From a virus (Duplodnaviria > Heunggongvirae > Uroviricota > Caudoviricetes), in IMG/VR virus record IMGVR_UViG_2563366980_000004: DNA of 45,423 nucleotides. One strand, given 5' to 3'. Positions 5,054 to 44,388 of the stretch are shown here, in pieces. The notes under the pieces are model-generated. The model was not told the origin of the DNA. It saw nothing but the letters and a program-made list of their open reading frames with translations, and ran no database searches. The stretch's first letter is position 1; every line of letters begins with the position of its first letter. Made by a program: the position numbers and the translations under genes.

Positions 5054-5415
5054 TATGCCCCAGCCTCCGGTGCTTTTGGCATTACTGCCCAGTGAGTGAT
5101 ATTGACGTTTTCAAGGTCCCCGACCTGAAATGTCCACTGCCATTCTCCGGTTTCTTTTTGTCCCCAGGTGTACCAGAGAGAACGCCAGCCAATCAGCCAG
5201 CCTTCTCCGTTAATATCAAATAACAGAACACTTTCATTTGCTGGTGGAAGTTCAACTGACACTGGTATTACTTTGTTTTCCAGTGCCGCACATTTAGCTT
5301 CAAGCGCATCGAATTTACGTACCAGATACTCAGCATTTGTTTCATTCACTTTCAGATCTCGCGGTACACATTTCCCGCGAAGAAACCCTTCCATTTCGAA
5401 AACATTCATGCGCAT
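5053..5415 (-). CDS. Hypothetical phage protein with DUF551-like C-terminus (YfdS-like)
   Basis: 120 aa; W-rich C-terminus ending ITHWAVMPKAPE resembles DUF551. Confidence 0.7.
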   Translation of the reverse strand: MRMNVFEMEGFLRGKCVPRDLKVNETNAEYLVRKFDALEAKCAALENKVIPVSVELPPANESVLLFDINGEGWLIGWRSLWYTWGQKETGEWQWTFQVGDLENVNITHWAVMPKAPEAGA

Positions 5416-5942
5416 TTGCGTAACTCCGATAACTCGTTAAAACGTTCCATAAACATCCCATAGGCATGGCCTGGCGACAGTGGAATAACTTTGAACATCT
5501 CTGTTGCCGGGATACCTTCCAGTACAGGCCAGAAAGAGCCATCATCAAGCCCGAGATCGCGGCGTTCGGTTGCCAGCATGATGAGATCGGCATATTTCAC
5601 AGGCGTGCTCATAACCGGGGGTAACCCGTATTTCTCACGGATTACGGCGTCTATTTTTTCTTCCATCCGTTTATAGTCAGGAAGAAGGCGTTTCAGTGGC
5701 GCGGGGATGTCCTGGCAATACGCTTCTGTTGCATCATGCATTAACGCTTCAAAAGCAAATTCCTGCGGCACCAGCTGGCTGCAAAGCACCGCATGCTGGG
5801 CGACGCTGTAGAAGTGTGAAAGATGTCCTGCAAAGCGACAGATATTTGAAAGGGAAACCGCGATATCGTTAATCACGATGTCGTCTTTATTTATCCTGTC
5901 ATAATAAAAATGCTTCCCGGAAAAAGTTTTAATAAATGACAT
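5406..5942 (-). CDS. HD-domain phosphohydrolase (YfdR-like)
   Basis: Start taken at MSFIKT (ORF-track frame arithmetic); HD-type metal-binding residues (H...HD...D) in NICRFAGH...EALMHDATEAY. Confidence 0.8.
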   Translation of the reverse strand: MSFIKTFSGKHFYYDRINKDDIVINDIAVSLSNICRFAGHLSHFYSVAQHAVLCSQLVPQEFAFEALMHDATEAYCQDIPAPLKRLLPDYKRMEEKIDAVIREKYGLPPVMSTPVKYADLIMLATERRDLGLDDGSFWPVLEGIPATEMFKVIPLSPGHAYGMFMERFNELSELRKCA

Positions 5943-6069
5943 TTTGTTCTCCACGTATATGTGCTGCACCACGCTGAATTCTGGTAAAAGGAAGCCCTCA
6001 CCATCCGGTGATTATTGAGTTAATTACGTTTCCATAAATGCCCCCGCAGGGGCATTTGCAGTAATGAAA

Positions 6070-6894
6070 TCAGGCGGTGAAAGTACCAATAAAGGTTTCT
6101 ACTTTGCTGTCCTTGAATTTCTCAACAAGCAGATCACGAAATTCGTTAGCCATTTCCTCCTGCACTGCTTCCAGCTGAATAATGCGCAGAACCAGTACAG
6201 GACGATCGCCAGTGAGAATGCTGAGGCGTAATTTAAACGGACGTTCTTTCAGGCCTTCAAACGGAACGCATTTAAATTCAAATGCCACTGGCATAATGTC
6301 TTTGGTTTTCGCTTCGACAGACTCCATCAGGGAGCGTTTGCCGCTGAAGTCATTGTCTTCAAAATCAGCGGTCTGGTTTGCTTCAATCGTGATTTTACGG
6401 ACTGCCGCAGCTGCTTTTGTTGCCTGAATAGCGTCACCATTAGCATCAAAGCCCACAAGGTAGTCGGCCCAGTCTTCAATCCATTCTGCCAGTGACTTCT
6501 GGGAGTTACGCTCGCCATTAACAGACAACAGAGCAGAGAACGGTGCTGTCTTTTTCAGTTTGAGAGTGGCGGTGTTATCTGCGTGACCTGGTTCATCAAT
6601 AGTACCCAGATTAAGCACACTGACAGCACGCATATTATCAGCATCGATAAAGCAGCGGGTGCCTTCATCTGCAAGATCTTTAGAATAACGGGTAAAGTCA
6701 TCGATGCTGGCAGTGGAAAGCGCACCACGGAAACGGAAGCGATTTAAATTAAATTTTTCCAGATCATGAATGCGGAAATTCTCAGGCAATGCCACAGCAT
6801 CGGCACCAATCTTACTGATAATTTCATTAACACCCTGAGCAGAAATAAGGGCATGGATTTGATTAATTGCGGTTGCGTCTAAGTTCTGAGACAT
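6070..6894 (-). CDS. DUF2303 family phage protein (YfdQ-like)
   Basis: 274 aa, same length and general sequence character as E. coli prophage YfdQ; conserved early-left position. Confidence 0.75.
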
Positions 6895-6959
6895 AATAAG
6901 TCCTCACTATATAAAGATATTCAGTGATGAGATAAATAATCAGTTTATTAAAAACGATA

Positions 6960-7322
6960 TTAACGACCAGCTGCGCGGAGTTTTCCGTCAGGTTCACCGG
7001 CAAGAGTCAGTAATTGTCCCTGGTCTTCCTGCAGAATAGTCAGGCGACCACCGCGATTGACATACATCGGCGTTTCGGTGGTGTCTTCTTCGGAAATTTT
7101 CCCGCGGTTAGTTGGGCGAACATATGAGAGTTTGTGTTTGATTTTCACACGGTTCTCATCAAACGGTTCGATTTCCAGATTGAGTGAGACCTTCCCTTTG
7201 GTTTTCGTGTTCATCACACCGGAAGCGACTTCACTTAGAACTGCGCCGATTTTTGTTTCAAATACGCCGCCGTCCAGCTCCCCGATAAATGCCTGCACAT
7301 CAGTACTGCGTTCACTAGCCAT
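6960..7322 (-). CDS. Hypothetical early-left phage protein (YfdP-like)
   Basis: Start taken at internal MASERSTD (ATG 7322); the upstream in-frame extension to 7508 looks non-coding (C/H/R-rich and overlaps a 10-bp inverted repeat). Confidence 0.6.
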   Translation of the reverse strand: MASERSTDVQAFIGELDGGVFETKIGAVLSEVASGVMNTKTKGKVSLNLEIEPFDENRVKIKHKLSYVRPTNRGKISEEDTTETPMYVNRGGRLTILQEDQGQLLTLAGEPDGKLRAAGR

Positions 7323-7950
7323 TTTGCTGCTCCTCATCATATCGACCCTGCAATGTCGGTTAGTTTCTCCACAAAACAGAGAAGAACACCTGCGGTGGTA
7401 GCCGCCCGGATGGATTGGGTTATGAGCCCGTCGTCCGATGATGTTCTTCTCTGTTTTGTAAAAAGAGCGGTACCAGCCGGAAGCAAGTGTACAAACTGGT
7501 ACCGCCAAAGCAGTGGCTGTTGTGGTGACCGGTGCTGATCTCCGGCTTGCGGTTATTTCAGACTCTCACGGGCATTTAATTGCCCCGCCGAACAGCTCTT
7601 TTCCGCAATAGCTGCAATGTCTTTCGCGCATCAGCCTGCGCATTCACCACAACGCTGAGAGCACTTAGCCAGTTACGGCACCACACTTTGTCGCGGTTCC
7701 ATAAATGCCCTCATCGTTGCACCCTGGTCTCTTCCCAGGCGTCAAACCGAATCGCCACGCTGGTTAGGCGTCTTATCAGCATCATCATTGACTTGCACAT
7801 TCCGGCTACCTGGTTTGTTTGCCCGAGCAAGGAGTGGATTGTCCCCTTTAACGTCCCCAGACCGCTAACGACGCATGTGCCATACGCCGTGTTACAACCA
7901 AATTTTGTTAGTACCTTGTTTGTTTGTCTGGAAAGAAAGATAAAATGAAG

Positions 7951-7989
7951 TTGCGCATTATGCAAGTGTTTTTGTTGCGAGATATGCAA
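7951..7989. promoter_or_regulatory. Candidate OL: two 15-bp TTGC-N7-GCAA palindromic operator sites
   Basis: TTGCGCATTATGCAA (7951-7965) and TTGCGAGATATGCAA (7975-7989) have the same half-site pattern as the site in the cI-cro intergenic region; positioned just beyond the cI terminator, where lambda-like pL/OL would be. Confidence 0.45.
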
Positions 7990-8000
7990 TTTAATGGGTA

Positions 8001-8025
8001 ATGAAAAGCCACCTTCGGGTGGCTA
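8001..8025 (-). terminator. Intrinsic terminator downstream of cI
   Basis: GCCACC-UUCG-GGUGGC tetraloop hairpin followed on the minus strand by TTTTCATT, about 20 nt after the cI stop. Confidence 0.5.
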
Positions 8026-8044
8026 ATTGATGAGGAGGTAAGGG

Positions 8045-8737
8045 TTAATTGTGTCGCTTAAGGGTTTGTGACTGGCTGATTAAGACCTTTCCAAAGACCA
8101 TAAACCGGTGTTCATTTTCGCTGGTAATTCCCCATTCACGGTAAATCTGGTTATCAGAAATCACCAGTAGTTTGTCAGGTATCATTTGCAGTCGTTTGAC
8201 ATAAATTTTATCATCAAAACCAAATACATAGATACCATCTCCATCAAACTGATTGATACTGACATCAACGAAGATGAGATCTCCTGGCTCAATGGTTGGA
8301 CACATACTGTCCCCACGAACGTTGATAACTTTAATGTGATTGGCTGGCCGTCCGCCAAACATCGATACAGCATTATCAGTTCTGTATTCAATGGCATGAA
8401 TCACATCAATGACATCACCGCCCTGGATAAGGCCATTTCCCGCACTGGCACTGACATCCAGCATTTCAATACGGAATACATCCTTCACCTGCGCAACATC
8501 CTCACTAATACTGTTTTTACATACAGTATTACTTTTGAAGTCTGAGGTAAAGAGATCAGCAATATCAACACCTAAGCTCCTGGCAATATTACTCAGGGCT
8601 TGTTCAGTGAATTGTTTCTGCTTACCTGTTTCCAGGCGTGAGATATTCGCCGCATCCACTCCTATTGCTTCAGCGAGATCGGCGATTTTCATGTTCTTCG
8701 CCTGGCGAAGTTGTCTGACTCGGTTTCCTATGTTCAT
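8045..8737 (-). CDS. cI: CI-type prophage repressor (HTH_XRE + S24 LexA-like peptidase domain)
   Basis: 230 aa; N-terminal HTH (LRQAKNMKIADLAEAIGVDAANISRLETGK) and C-terminal S24 signature (RGDSMCPTIEPGDLIFVD...YVKRL); divergent from the cro-like gene. Confidence 0.9.
   Translation of the reverse strand: MNIGNRVRQLRQAKNMKIADLAEAIGVDAANISRLETGKQKQFTEQALSNIARSLGVDIADLFTSDFKSNTVCKNSISEDVAQVKDVFRIEMLDVSASAGNGLIQGGDVIDVIHAIEYRTDNAVSMFGGRPANHIKVINVRGDSMCPTIEPGDLIFVDVSINQFDGDGIYVFGFDDKIYVKRLQMIPDKLLVISDNQIYREWGITSENEHRFMVFGKVLISQSQTLKRHN
8509..8528. promoter_or_regulatory. Consensus-like SOS (LexA) box inside the cI coding sequence
   Basis: TACTGTTTTTACATACAGTA matches CTGT-N8-ACAG with TA flanks; in the HTH-peptidase linker region of cI. 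Confidence 0.35.
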
Positions 8738-9639: not shown

Positions 9640-10787
9640 ACAGTTTAACGGCAAATAACCGTTTGTCGCAACAGCTGGTGGTCAGTGTCGCTGCACACCT
9701 GTTGTTACGGCATGAATGCAGATTACCAAATCACCTGGCTGTAAGTAACCACAGAGAACTTTACCTGACTGTGGGGGGCGAGTTGTGCAGGAACTTAACC
9801 GCTGGTTTCGTGACGGAAGAGGACTTTATGTTCATGTTATTCGTTGGGAGCCAGAAACACAGCGCGTTATCTATCTTCGCAAAGACTACCCGCATGAGTG
9901 CTTTAGTCCTTTGTGGAAATTCAGGCGTGATTTTGTTGAGTGTGAAGGACCACCAGCACATTGATTCTGCCATTCCGGGACGTTACACTGTTCAGGCACC
10001 TTATAAAGCGGGTGCCGGGCGTGGAAACCCGGAATTCACCAAAGCGCACAACCGCGCTCTTGCGGTTTTTTTGTGTCATGAGCAGCATTACGCCCAAATT
10101 ATGGTGGGGCGTGCAGGGCCAACTTCGGTTGGGCCGGGTTCTTTGGTGACCGGTATTTCCACCCCTGTACGTCTCACCACCAATAAGGTCGTGGAAAGCC
10201 TTGGTGGTGAGTTATTAAAAATCACCAAAGAGGCTGCCATCATGGCTACGATCCCAACCCTCACTCAACCTGAAATTGCCATCGTTGATGGTCAGGCTGT
10301 TACTTCATCCCTGGCTGTTGCCAACTTCTTCTCCAAACGTCATGACGATGTACTGAAAAAGATCCGCACGCTTGAATGTTCCGCATCATTCACTGCCCGC
10401 AATTTTTCGGTGAGTGATTACACCGATTGCACAGGCCGCAAACTACCTTGCTATCAAATAACCCGCGACGGCTTTGCGTTTCTTGCTATGGGTTTCACGG
10501 GTAAACGTGCTGCCCAGTTCAAAGAGGCATACATCAATGCCTTTAACCAGATGGAGAAACAGCTTTCAAAGCCCGCTGTACCGAGCGACGTTGCACATAA
10601 CGCCAGCGTTCTCTGTTCCTACATTTCATCAATTCATCAGGTCTGGCTGCAGCAGCTTTATCCTATGTTGGCAAAAGCCGAATCTCCGCTGGCTGTTAGC
10701 TTATATGACTATATTAATGATGCTTCGGCGCTGGCCTGCCTCATAAATTTGTCGCTGAACCCTTCAGAGGTAAGGGGGCGCAAATGA
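9636..10787 (+). CDS. Rha-family phage regulatory protein (Rha domain from ATG 10242; status of the upstream 200 codons uncertain)
   Basis: C-terminal 182 aa (MATIPTLTQPEIAIVDGQAVTSSLAVANFFSKRHDDVLKKIR...) matches the Rha domain, with an AAGAGG RBS before 10242; the same frame is stop-free back to an ATGA overlap with the upstream gene but has odd composition and an internal terminator-like hairpin. Confidence 0.5.
   Translation: MNSLTANNRLSQQLVVSVAAHLLLRHECRLPNHLAVSNHRELYLTVGGELCRNLTAGFVTEEDFMFMLFVGSQKHSALSIFAKTTRMSALVLCGNSGVILLSVKDHQHIDSAIPGRYTVQAPYKAGAGRGNPEFTKAHNRALAVFLCHEQHYAQIMVGRAGPTSVGPGSLVTGISTPVRLTTNKVVESLGGELLKITKEAAIMATIPTLTQPEIAIVDGQAVTSSLAVANFFSKRHDDVLKKIRTLECSASFTARNFSVSDYTDCTGRKLPCYQITRDGFAFLAMGFTGKRAAQFKEAYINAFNQMEKQLSKPAVPSDVAHNASVLCSYISSIHQVWLQQLYPMLAKAESPLAVSLYDYINDASALACLINLSLNPSEVRGRK
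10050..10072 (+). terminator. Intrinsic terminator-like hairpin plus T-run (tR1-like)
   Basis: ACCGC-GCTCTT-GCGGT followed by TTTTTTT. Confidence 0.45.
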
Positions 10788-13695: not shown

Positions 13696-14493
13696 ATGAA
13701 TAATCTGATGGTCATTGATGGTATTGAAGTTCGTCGTGATGCTTATGGTCGTTACAGCCTGAACGATCTTCACAGGGCTGCCGGTTCTCTGGATAAGCAT
13801 AAGCCTGCATTCTGGCTCCGCAATGAGCAAACTGAACATTTAATAAGCGAGTTGCAGATTTGCAACTCGGTCAATATAGAGCCAGTTAACGTTATTCGTG
13901 GCGGAAATAACCAGGGGACGTATGTCTGCAAAGAACTGGTGTATGCCTATGCAATGTGGATAAGCCCGTCATTCCATCTTAAGGTGATCCGTACTTTCGA
14001 TATGGTAACCAGCGTACCGGAAAAATTATCCGGGCAGGCTGCTGACAAGATGCAGGCTGGTGTGATTCTGCTGGACTTTATGCGCCGGGAATTAAATCTG
14101 TCTAACTCTTCAGTGCTTGGTGCCTGTCAGAAACTCCAGGAGGCTGTTGGCTTACCGAATCTGGCACCGCGCTATGCCATTGATGCTCCTGCTGACGCGC
14201 CTGATGGCTCAAGCCGCCCCACGCTGTCACTGAGTGCACTGCTGAAGCAGTATGGTATCCGCCTGACAGCTAATCAGGCATATCACCAGATGGCGAAGCT
14301 GGGGATCGTTGAACAACGTGAACGATACAGCCGTACCGAGATTAATAACATCAAAAAATTCTGGTCGCTGACGGCGAAAGGCTGCATGTTCGGCAAGAAC
14401 ATCACCAGTCCGGCAAATCCGCGCGAGACGCAGCCACACTTCTTCGAATCCCGATTCCCTGAGCTGTTAAAGCTGCTCGATACCGTTCATTGA
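13696..14493 (+). CDS. KilA-N domain protein (antirepressor-like)
   Basis: N-terminal KilA-N-like domain (IDGIEVRRDAYGRYSLNDLHRAAG...KPAFWLRNEQT...AMWISPSFHLKVI). Confidence 0.75.
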   Translation: MNNLMVIDGIEVRRDAYGRYSLNDLHRAAGSLDKHKPAFWLRNEQTEHLISELQICNSVNIEPVNVIRGGNNQGTYVCKELVYAYAMWISPSFHLKVIRTFDMVTSVPEKLSGQAADKMQAGVILLDFMRRELNLSNSSVLGACQKLQEAVGLPNLAPRYAIDAPADAPDGSSRPTLSLSALLKQYGIRLTANQAYHQMAKLGIVEQRERYSRTEINNIKKFWSLTAKGCMFGKNITSPANPRETQPHFFESRFPELLKLLDTVH

Positions 14494-19516: not shown

Positions 19517-19560
19517 CTTTTTATTGCCATTATCAAAGCCACTCCCTACAGAGTGGCTTT
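19517..19560. repeat. Perfect 19-bp inverted repeat with 6-nt loop
   Basis: GCCATTATCAAAGCCACTC - CCTACA - GAGTGGCTTTGATAATGGC. Confidence 0.5.
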
Positions 19561-44290: not shown

Positions 44291-44388
44291 GGTGCCTTAC
44301 CAAAAATTAAGACTGTTATCTATATAAAAATGTTACCCAAGAGGGATTGTAATGAAATAACAAACCGGCACATTGGCCGGTTTGAAGT

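Follow-up and report, generated by a model that had tools for sequence, protein, structure and literature searches.

Between the yfdQ-like and yfdR-like genes of a virus of the class Caudoviricetes (IMG/VR record IMGVR_UViG_2563366980_000004) lies a perfect inverted repeat, which raises the question of whether it is a terminator, another kind of RNA element, a signal in the DNA or an accident of sequence. We examined it in a stretch of 45,423 nucleotides, hereafter called the window, and in related loci of viral contigs and bacterial genomes.

The hairpin and its genomic setting

The minus strand is the coding strand of the locus. The yfdQ-like gene (DUF2303; 6070-6894, minus strand), with its stop codon at 6070-6072, lies 5' of the hairpin. 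The yfdR-like gene, which encodes a 5'-deoxynucleotidase (5406-5942, minus strand), starts with an ATG at 5942, and its ribosome-binding site GGAGAA together with the ATG occupies 5940-5952 (minus strand). The gap from the yfdQ-like stop to the yfdR-like ATG measures 127 nt, in agreement with the preliminary description, which had placed the hairpin in an intergenic position inside an operon. The hairpin, named here the upper stem of P1, spans 6036-6057 (minus strand) and reads AAAUGCCCC-UGCG-GGGGCAUUU, a stem of 9 bp with a UNCG-type loop, C(UGCG)G; on the plus strand the same positions read AAATGCCCC-CGCA-GGGGCATTT. The perfect stem and 4-nt loop reported earlier were confirmed by reading both strands. 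The upper stem begins 12 nt past the yfdQ stop and is followed on the coding strand by AUGGAAACG, without a U-run, and the plus strand beside the stem, GCAGTAATG, is likewise without a T-run. The terminator scan of the window does not list the site, and the earlier remark that no T-run follows on the coding strand holds. The predicted stability is -15.0 kcal/mol in the sense orientation and -13.2 kcal/mol in the antisense orientation.

On chance grounds alone, nothing about the P1 hairpin stands out. Perfect 9-bp stems with loops of 3-8 nt occur 1.05 +/- 1.18 times per dinucleotide-shuffled window, 60% of the shuffles contain at least one such hairpin, and the window itself holds five distinct ones, against about one expected by chance. 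Other perfect hairpins of at least 9 bp are located at 8506-8531, 13848-13869, 19535-19560 and 44361-44384. A functionless chance repeat would fit this background frequency, and P1 is set apart from it by its conservation and covariation across genera, as described below.

The locus is widely distributed. The yfdQ-yfdR segment of the window (5400-6900, used as a 1501-bp query) is 100% identical to a prophage of Escherichia coli MS7163 and matches 3012 of 5426 complete E. coli genomes, as well as Stx2, cdtI, mEp460 and SfIV phages. The E. coli K-12 prophage CPS-53 carries the identical hairpin (NC_000913.3, 2474869-2474890) and most of the gap in identical form. The genes xis and int follow downstream of yfdR in SfIV-type phages. 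The yfdR product is a DnaA-binding 5'-deoxynucleotidase (PMC4776307); this paper on yfdQRST does not discuss promoters, terminators or transcripts. The phage records carry no annotation at the hairpin site, and a paper on small RNAs of EHEC prophages concerns a different locus.

Covariation of the P1 stem across genera

Across a set of 80 near-identical viral loci, hardly any variation falls in the hairpin, whereas the remainder of the gap varies. More distant relatives were collected by scanning a YfdQ alignment against one genome per bacterial species; the 80 loci obtained in this way come from about 40 genera and have amino-acid identities of 38-99%. Nearly every Enterobacterales YfdQ locus has a strong hairpin beginning 0-15 nt past the stop, with differing stem sequences, and in nearly all Enterobacteriaceae sequences the upper stem begins 10-12 nt past the stop. 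The stem reads UUAAUUGCCCUGC/GCGGGGCAAUUAG in Mixta and Erwinia, UUAAAUCCCCGG/CCGGGGAUUUAUU in Citrobacter and Klebsiella, ACAAAUGCCACU/GGUGGCAUUUAU in Proteus and UAAGCGUCG/CGGCGCUUA in Xenorhabdus. Beyond these, YfdQ homologs of about 40% identity in Marinobacter (L270, L271, L274, L285) and Pseudomonas (L278-L284) are followed by GC-rich hairpins without U-tracts; that of Marinobacter koreensis, CGCCCC-UGCG-GGGGCG, has the same core and loop as in E. coli.

In a MAFFT alignment of 40 distinct sequences, the nine core pairs are paired in every sequence (360 of 360 cells), and five of the nine show compensatory double changes. None of 500 shuffles reached the observed values of pairing and covariation. 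As a control on the same alignment, sliding the partners by one to three columns lowered the pairing from 86% to 37-47%. These compensatory changes across about 40 genera, with the flanking intergenic sequence and the loops varying while the pairing is kept, refute the chance reading, to which we assign practically no weight. The preliminary description had named a lack of transcript discontinuity or of conservation at this site as findings that would speak against it; the site is conserved.

The G·U and A·C cells in P1 stand at 31:3 in the MAFFT alignment and at 19:1 in a covariance-model alignment, and this excess of G·U over A·C indicates that the structure is selected on the mRNA-sense strand. 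As far as comparative evidence can establish it, the alignments show P1 to be a selected RNA structure on the sense strand, and they argue against a feature of duplex DNA or of an antisense transcript. The earlier preference for an RNA element is upheld in this respect, and covariation together with the G·U to A·C asymmetry assigns the element to coding-strand RNA. The same data bear on the proposal that the signals around P1 are read in DNA, either as an internal yfdR promoter (TTTATG-16 nt-AATAAT), with P1 acting as a stop ahead of it, or as a palindromic protein-binding site. P1 is indeed a perfect 22-bp palindrome, and about 17-20 of the 48 aligned sequences share a weak -35/-10 match at one alignment column. 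However, the position-weight scores are low (3-8 bits), the match is missing in the Mixta, Erwinia and Klebsiella types, a promoter scan of the window finds none, and the short gaps of Proteus-type loci have no room for a promoter. The 31:3 ratio, the variable loops of 3-8 nt and the covarying stems also favor RNA over duplex DNA, and a DNA signal appears improbable. A sigma-54 promoter in TGGCGAGGGATTCGTGCA was rejected by reading of the sequence, its GG-to-GC spacing being 2 nt too long, and the matches to a sigma-70 promoter were weak and inconsistent.

The loop behaves differently from the stem. Hairpins of the C(UNCG)G type are reportedly those of Tuerk et al. 1988. P1 fits this pattern on the coding strand, C(UGCG)G, whereas the plus-strand loop CGCA does not. 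In 120 viral contigs selected by the stem, the great majority of loops are UGCG, the others being UUCG, UCCG, UGAG and UGUG, and one E. coli genome carries UACG; the UUCG, UCCG and UACG variants keep the UNCG pattern, while the rare UGAG and UGUG loops depart from it. Since the loops of other genera are 3-8 nt long and unrelated in sequence, the UNCG tetraloop is, on this comparison, a lineage-specific stabilizer of the E. coli lineage and not the conserved feature. Exact matches to the stem lie at the yfdQ locus in 107 of the 120 contigs; the remaining 13 are unrelated hairpins, several with T-runs, and real U-runs follow the same 9-bp stem in these unrelated phage contexts.

A larger conserved RNA and its placement

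P1 extends below the reported hairpin. Its 5' flank UUUCAUUACUGC (6058-6069, minus strand), directly 3' of the yfdQ stop codon, supplies the 5' side of a lower stem and an internal loop, and its 3' tail AUGGAAACGUAAUU (6022-6035, minus strand) supplies the 3' side. The tail has the consensus A(G/U)(U/G)GAA(G/A)CG(U/A)AAUU, is kept across genera (alignments A4 and A5) and stays with yfdQ where other intergenic sequence has been replaced (L004, L081, L195). In the minimum-energy fold of the window sequence, the lower stem pairs UUUCAU with AUGGAA (-17.3 kcal/mol, z = -3.5), and the Kosakonia-type P1 reaches -23.2 kcal/mol (z = -4.2). Elsewhere the lower stem takes the forms CGCU/AGCG, CAC/GUG, GCU/AGC and CGUUU/AAACG versus CGCUU/AAGCG, with U-A to C-G covariation and, for the last contrast, six compensatory cases; in the lineage of the window it is weak or remodelled. 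With 9-12 bp in the upper stem and 4-6 bp in the lower, on either side of a small internal loop, the helix comes to about 16-19 bp.

In Enterobacteriaceae, Erwiniaceae and their relatives, the whole gap of 125-140 nt is conserved, and P1 is followed in order by an AU-rich stretch, a hairpin P2, a linker, a hairpin P3 and the ribosome-binding site. P2 (5998-6011, minus strand) reads UCACC-GGAU-GGUGA, with the consensus UCGCC-loop-GGCGA; its variants UCGCC/GGCGA, UUGCC/GGCAA and UCGCC/GGUGA have variable loops of 3-6 nt, and two of its five pairs show double changes in the 48-sequence covariance-model alignment. The conserved single-stranded linker GGGCUUCCUUUUACCAGAAUUCA (5975-5997, minus strand) has the consensus GGGAUUCGUGCAACCAAAA (alignments A5 and A9). 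P3 (5961-5974, minus strand) reads GCGUG-GUGCAG-CAC and lies 8 nt 5' of the yfdR-like ribosome-binding site; its GUGCAG hexaloop is nearly invariant, and its stem covaries, with G-C, U-A and A-U closing pairs and inserted pairs.

The whole P1-P2-P3 motif (5940-6072, minus strand) is present in a single copy in the window. A covariance model of it, R1, scores 130 bits at 5940-6072 with an E-value of about 1e-30; the only other match in the window is a palindromic echo on the plus strand. In the R1 alignment of 48 sequences, the pairing is 99.5% for P1, 99.6% for P2 and 89.8% for P3, and double changes occur at 12 of 19 pairs; this alignment leans towards the model, and the counts based on MAFFT agree with it. 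Rfam gives no match on 5940-6072, either at the gathering threshold or at E-values up to 10. On the alignments, P1 thus belongs to a larger conserved RNA architecture, with no Rfam match and no description found. The preliminary description had seen a part of this element and had missed the covarying lower stem, P2 and P3.

Several side readings of the gap were rejected. A small ORF (ATG GAA ACG TAA) and an N-terminally extended YfdR both fail, their frame and start not being conserved and the indels not being multiples of three. Pairing of the P3 loop UGCAG with CUGCA 5' of P1 shows no covariation, the partner being GCCUU in most genera, and the GGA in the P2 loop, considered as a CsrA-binding site, is not conserved.

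Elsewhere in the window, Rfam matches at gathering level were found on the plus strand to isrK (9996-10072, 67 bits) and to C4 antisense RNA (10097-10184, 83.6 bits), both inside a region for which the annotation of the identical MS7163 prophage gives a Rha-family regulatory protein. These matches suggest a c4-ant immunity module of the P1/P7 type at 9996-10184, and the Rha-family CDS annotation over this region is possibly over-extended.

The motif follows yfdQ regardless of the next gene, which is yfdR in most loci and an Ea22-like, exonuclease-like, pentapeptide-like or SSB gene in others. In Proteus, Providencia, Morganella and Xenorhabdus, the P1 equivalent stands alone in a gap of 51-110 nt, about 10-20 nt short of the next ribosome-binding site; the gaps of Proteus and Providencia, 51-58 nt, are so short that there is no room for a promoter. 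Two loci carry rearrangements. In E. coli AR_0014 (L003, 3150-3175), a deletion has taken out P0 (a further hairpin described below) and yfdP together with yfdQ, and of P1 it has removed the outer 5' arm; a mosaic junction at the hairpin was rejected here, the break being a simple deletion with the leader (...GGAGAAACUAACCG) fused to the inner P1. PSJ-23 (L004, about 2480-2550) is a recombinant in which yfdQ and P1 with its tail are kept while P2, P3 and yfdR are replaced, the homology running about 20 nt beyond P1.

The element is also found without yfdQ. A search of viral contigs with the P2 3' arm and linker returned 120 loci, about half of which have no yfdQ within 1.1 kb upstream. In these yfdQ-less loci, the early-left operon leader contains P1, complete with tail and lower stem, as well as P2 and P3, and GGAGAA(A/G)CUAAC and a hairpin, P0, directly precede P1 with no spacer. 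The P0 loop, UGGCAG or UUGCAG, resembles the P3 loop. RNAalifold applied to 18 such leaders predicted P0, both P1 stems, P2 and P3 independently. The hairpin is therefore not simply a 3' hairpin of yfdQ. In the window, GGAGAAACUAAC followed by the P0 hairpin CGAC-AUUGCAGG-GUCG lies at 7343-7370 (minus strand), just upstream of yfdP, and here, as in about 3000 E. coli genomes, a 1.3-kb yfdP-yfdQ segment is located between P0 and P1. By this comparison of loci, a conserved leader is split by yfdP-yfdQ, which behaves as a cassette placed between its P0 and P1.

Further observations concern the edges of the leader. The SD-like motif before P0 matches the ribosome-binding region after P3 of the same phage, with GGAGAUACC occurring twice in L289 and GGAGAAGCUAAC and GGAGAAACUAUCC at the two places in L308. 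Six yfdQ-less leaders (L301, L320, L325, L330, L348, L351) have a short hairpin GCGGAUUUAUCCAC in place of P3 and a different first gene (MNHLEFI...); this replacement places the right-hand module boundary between the linker and P3. In the window, about 650 nt of non-coding sequence (7323-7990, minus strand) lie between the cI-like repressor gene and yfdP, with no convincing ORF and no significant Rfam match. This region shares homologous stretches (e.g., ACGGCGUAUGGCACAUG and GGUAGCCGGAAUGUGCAAG) with the leader of yfdQ-less phages, which is roughly 600 nt long, and it may be a long structured early-left leader. ORFs antisense to the leader, at 7580-7948 (plus strand) and in L308 at 7068-7271 (minus strand), share short stretches such as P-L-x-x-H-x-PY near the C-terminus; they may represent a small conserved antisense gene or may be due to chance. 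The sequence AGCCACCCGAAGGUGGCU at 8007-8024 (minus strand) forms a canonical terminator-like hairpin with UUUUCAUUACC behind it; the cI-like repressor gene (8045-8737) ends 20 nt before this hairpin.

The yfdQ-less leaders bring up the idea that P0-P1-P2-P3 is one larger, undescribed cis-regulatory RNA, widespread in the early-left operon of Enterobacterales prophages, with P1 as its central helix and the yfdP-yfdQ cassette inserted inside it. A phage or host factor, or RNA polymerase, would recognize this RNA through the NUGCAG loops conserved in P0 and P3, and the RNA would control either elongation, by nut- or put-like antitermination or by attenuation, or the translation of the first downstream gene. 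Several features fit: the four-hairpin architecture is kept with covariation in the yfdQ-less leaders, where P0 abuts P1; the GUGCAG/UUGCAG loops and the linker GGGAUUCGUGCAACCAAAA are conserved in sequence; the P0 arms of this class, GGCGA...UCGCC, mirror the P2 arms, UCGCC...GGCGA, so that alternative pairings are possible; and the element matches no Rfam family. Like lambda nut and HK022 put, these hairpins lie in the early-left operon leader of a lambdoid prophage, and in some phages P3 has a P22-boxB-like stem, GCGCU/AGCGC. Unlike nut and put, the element occurs once per phage, without a left/right pair. Alignments A5 and A9 show no boxA, a GNRA-like pentaloop is absent (the loops being GUGCAG or variable), no N-like arginine-rich ORF is present in 7323-8044, and the best R1 match in the HK022 genome, 12 bits at E = 0.34, does not recover put. 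In addition, P0 and P1 are 1.3 kb apart in the window and in the E. coli genomes mentioned above, and P1 stands alone in Proteus-type loci. We consider a unitary RNA of this kind rather unlikely.

Possible roles of P1 in termination, processing and RNA stability

P1 resembles an intrinsic terminator in its GC-rich hairpin with A-rich 5' and U-rich 3' flanks, and its 9-bp stem, five G-C pairs and 4-nt loop lie within the usual range for terminator stem-loops (5-14 bp, loops of 3-8 nt). The full stem is followed by AUGGAAAC, short of the five U in 8 nt expected of a U-tract; counted from the G-C core, the tail AUUUAUGG has four U in 8. In the homologs the U-run ends at UUU and is followed by an invariant A, UUU-A-(G/U)(U/G)GAA being kept, and the A-U pairs at the stem base have an invariant orientation (AA...UU in 40/40 and 39/40 sequences). 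P1 thus differs from an intrinsic terminator in its UUU followed by a conserved A, in its position inside an operon and in its extra, covarying lower stem. The comparative sequence evidence shows that P1 is not a canonical terminator, that it lies inside the operon, and that its predicted helix is longer than termination needs. The earlier judgement that the hairpin is more likely an element of RNA processing, stability or attenuation than a terminator fits insofar as the canonical U-tract is lacking, and is weakened by a 3' arm that always ends in UU(U)A and by the full U-tract GCGGCAUUUUUAUAUU of the Morganella P1 equivalent.

The main rival to the reading that we prefer is therefore a leaky intrinsic terminator, or attenuator, at which a fraction of polymerases would stop at AUUUA after the GC-rich stem, so that yfdR and what lies beyond it, which in SfIV-type phages includes xis and int, would be expressed less than yfdP-yfdQ. 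Internal partial terminators tune operons, as at rplL-rpoB. A GC-rich stem of 9-12 bp with a loop of 4-8 nt, the invariant A-A 5' and U-U 3' at its base, the Morganella U-tract, the U/A-rich versions in Xenorhabdus and Providencia, and the U-runs that follow identical stems elsewhere in phage contigs would all suit such a role. Against it, only three consecutive U are present before the invariant A and G/U-G-A-A, and the consensus scan makes no call at P1. The covarying lower stem would be unneeded and would form only after at least 10 further nucleotides had been made. The ribosome-binding site about 10-20 nt past P1 in Proteus and Providencia indicates that there is no full stop at that place, and the next gene of Proteus-type loci has no room for its own promoter. 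Leaky termination is possible, but we hold it to be doubtful.

Our best explanation, tentative and held with somewhat less than even confidence, is that P1 is an RNA boundary element at which a 3' end would be protected or processed and termination would at most be weak. The reported hairpin would form the upper part of P1, a long interrupted stem-loop on the leftward early polycistronic transcript, in a module retained as a self-contained unit either just after yfdQ or in the operon leader of phages that lack yfdP-yfdQ. Once formed, P1 would block 3'-to-5' exonucleases; alternatively, it may serve as an endonuclease site, for an RNase III-type enzyme at the interrupted helix or for RNase E in the AU-rich flank, and any factor-independent termination at it would be weak. 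The RNA upstream (leader, yfdP and yfdQ) and downstream (yfdR onward to xis and int) would then differ in stability and yield, the downstream part beginning with a structured 5' end made up of P2 and P3. We infer this boundary, stability or processing role, together with the nuclease that would act.

The covariation of the upper stem, seen alike in the MAFFT, covariance-model and RNAalifold analyses, supports the boundary reading, as do the sense-strand signature, the covarying lower stem, the missing U-tract and the position of the upper stem: at 10-12 nt past the stop it lies, given the footprint size of the ribosome, just beyond a terminating ribosome. Three observations speak against it, namely the invariant AA...UU, which suggests a terminator A-/U-tract or a protein contact over pure structure; the weak or remodelled lower stem in the lineage of the window; and the sequence conservation of the linker and the P3 loop, which a stability role leaves unexplained. 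The K-12 transcript-end data consulted are uninformative: no yfdQ/yfdR entry was found in the searched supplements of Term-seq (Adams 2021), Cappable-seq and SMRT-Cappable-seq studies, and CPS-53 is poorly expressed.

Two known kinds of element come close to a boundary role. Intercistronic hairpins that stabilize mRNA are known from the malE-malF REP, the Rhodobacter puf operon, papB-papA and the T4 gene 32 region. P1 is like them in being a stable stem-loop just 3' of the upstream cistron on a polycistronic mRNA, with no U-tract, and by analogy the upstream segment would be expected to be more stable and to reach a higher yield. It is unlike them in its conserved 3' tail and lower stem and in its occurrence in a leader with no upstream gene. 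From REP-type elements it differs in being present once per phage at a constant locus, not as a dispersed repeat; in the window, too, the single copy does not fit a REP/BIME, which is defined by many dispersed copies. The second kind comprises the RNase III sites of phage early mRNAs, such as those of the T7 R1.1 type and the lambda N-leader and sib sites. P1 resembles these in its sequence of upper stem, internal loop and lower stem between phage early genes, and, if cut there, the upstream RNA would keep a hairpin at its 3' end. Whereas an RNase III site has about 20 bp, or two turns, of interrupted duplex, P1 has about 16-19 bp, with a lower stem of only 4-6 bp.

An intercistronic RNA stem-loop is an ordinary kind of element, and the comparative support for this one is unusually good; P1 provides a clean RNA motif, supported by covariation, that has no Rfam match. 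It is carried by the CPS-53 prophage of K-12, by Stx2-converting phages and by the Shigella serotype-converting phage SfIV, all convenient for experiments. A boundary element or attenuator at this position would determine what share of the early-left transcript reaches the genes with effects on host replication and excision.
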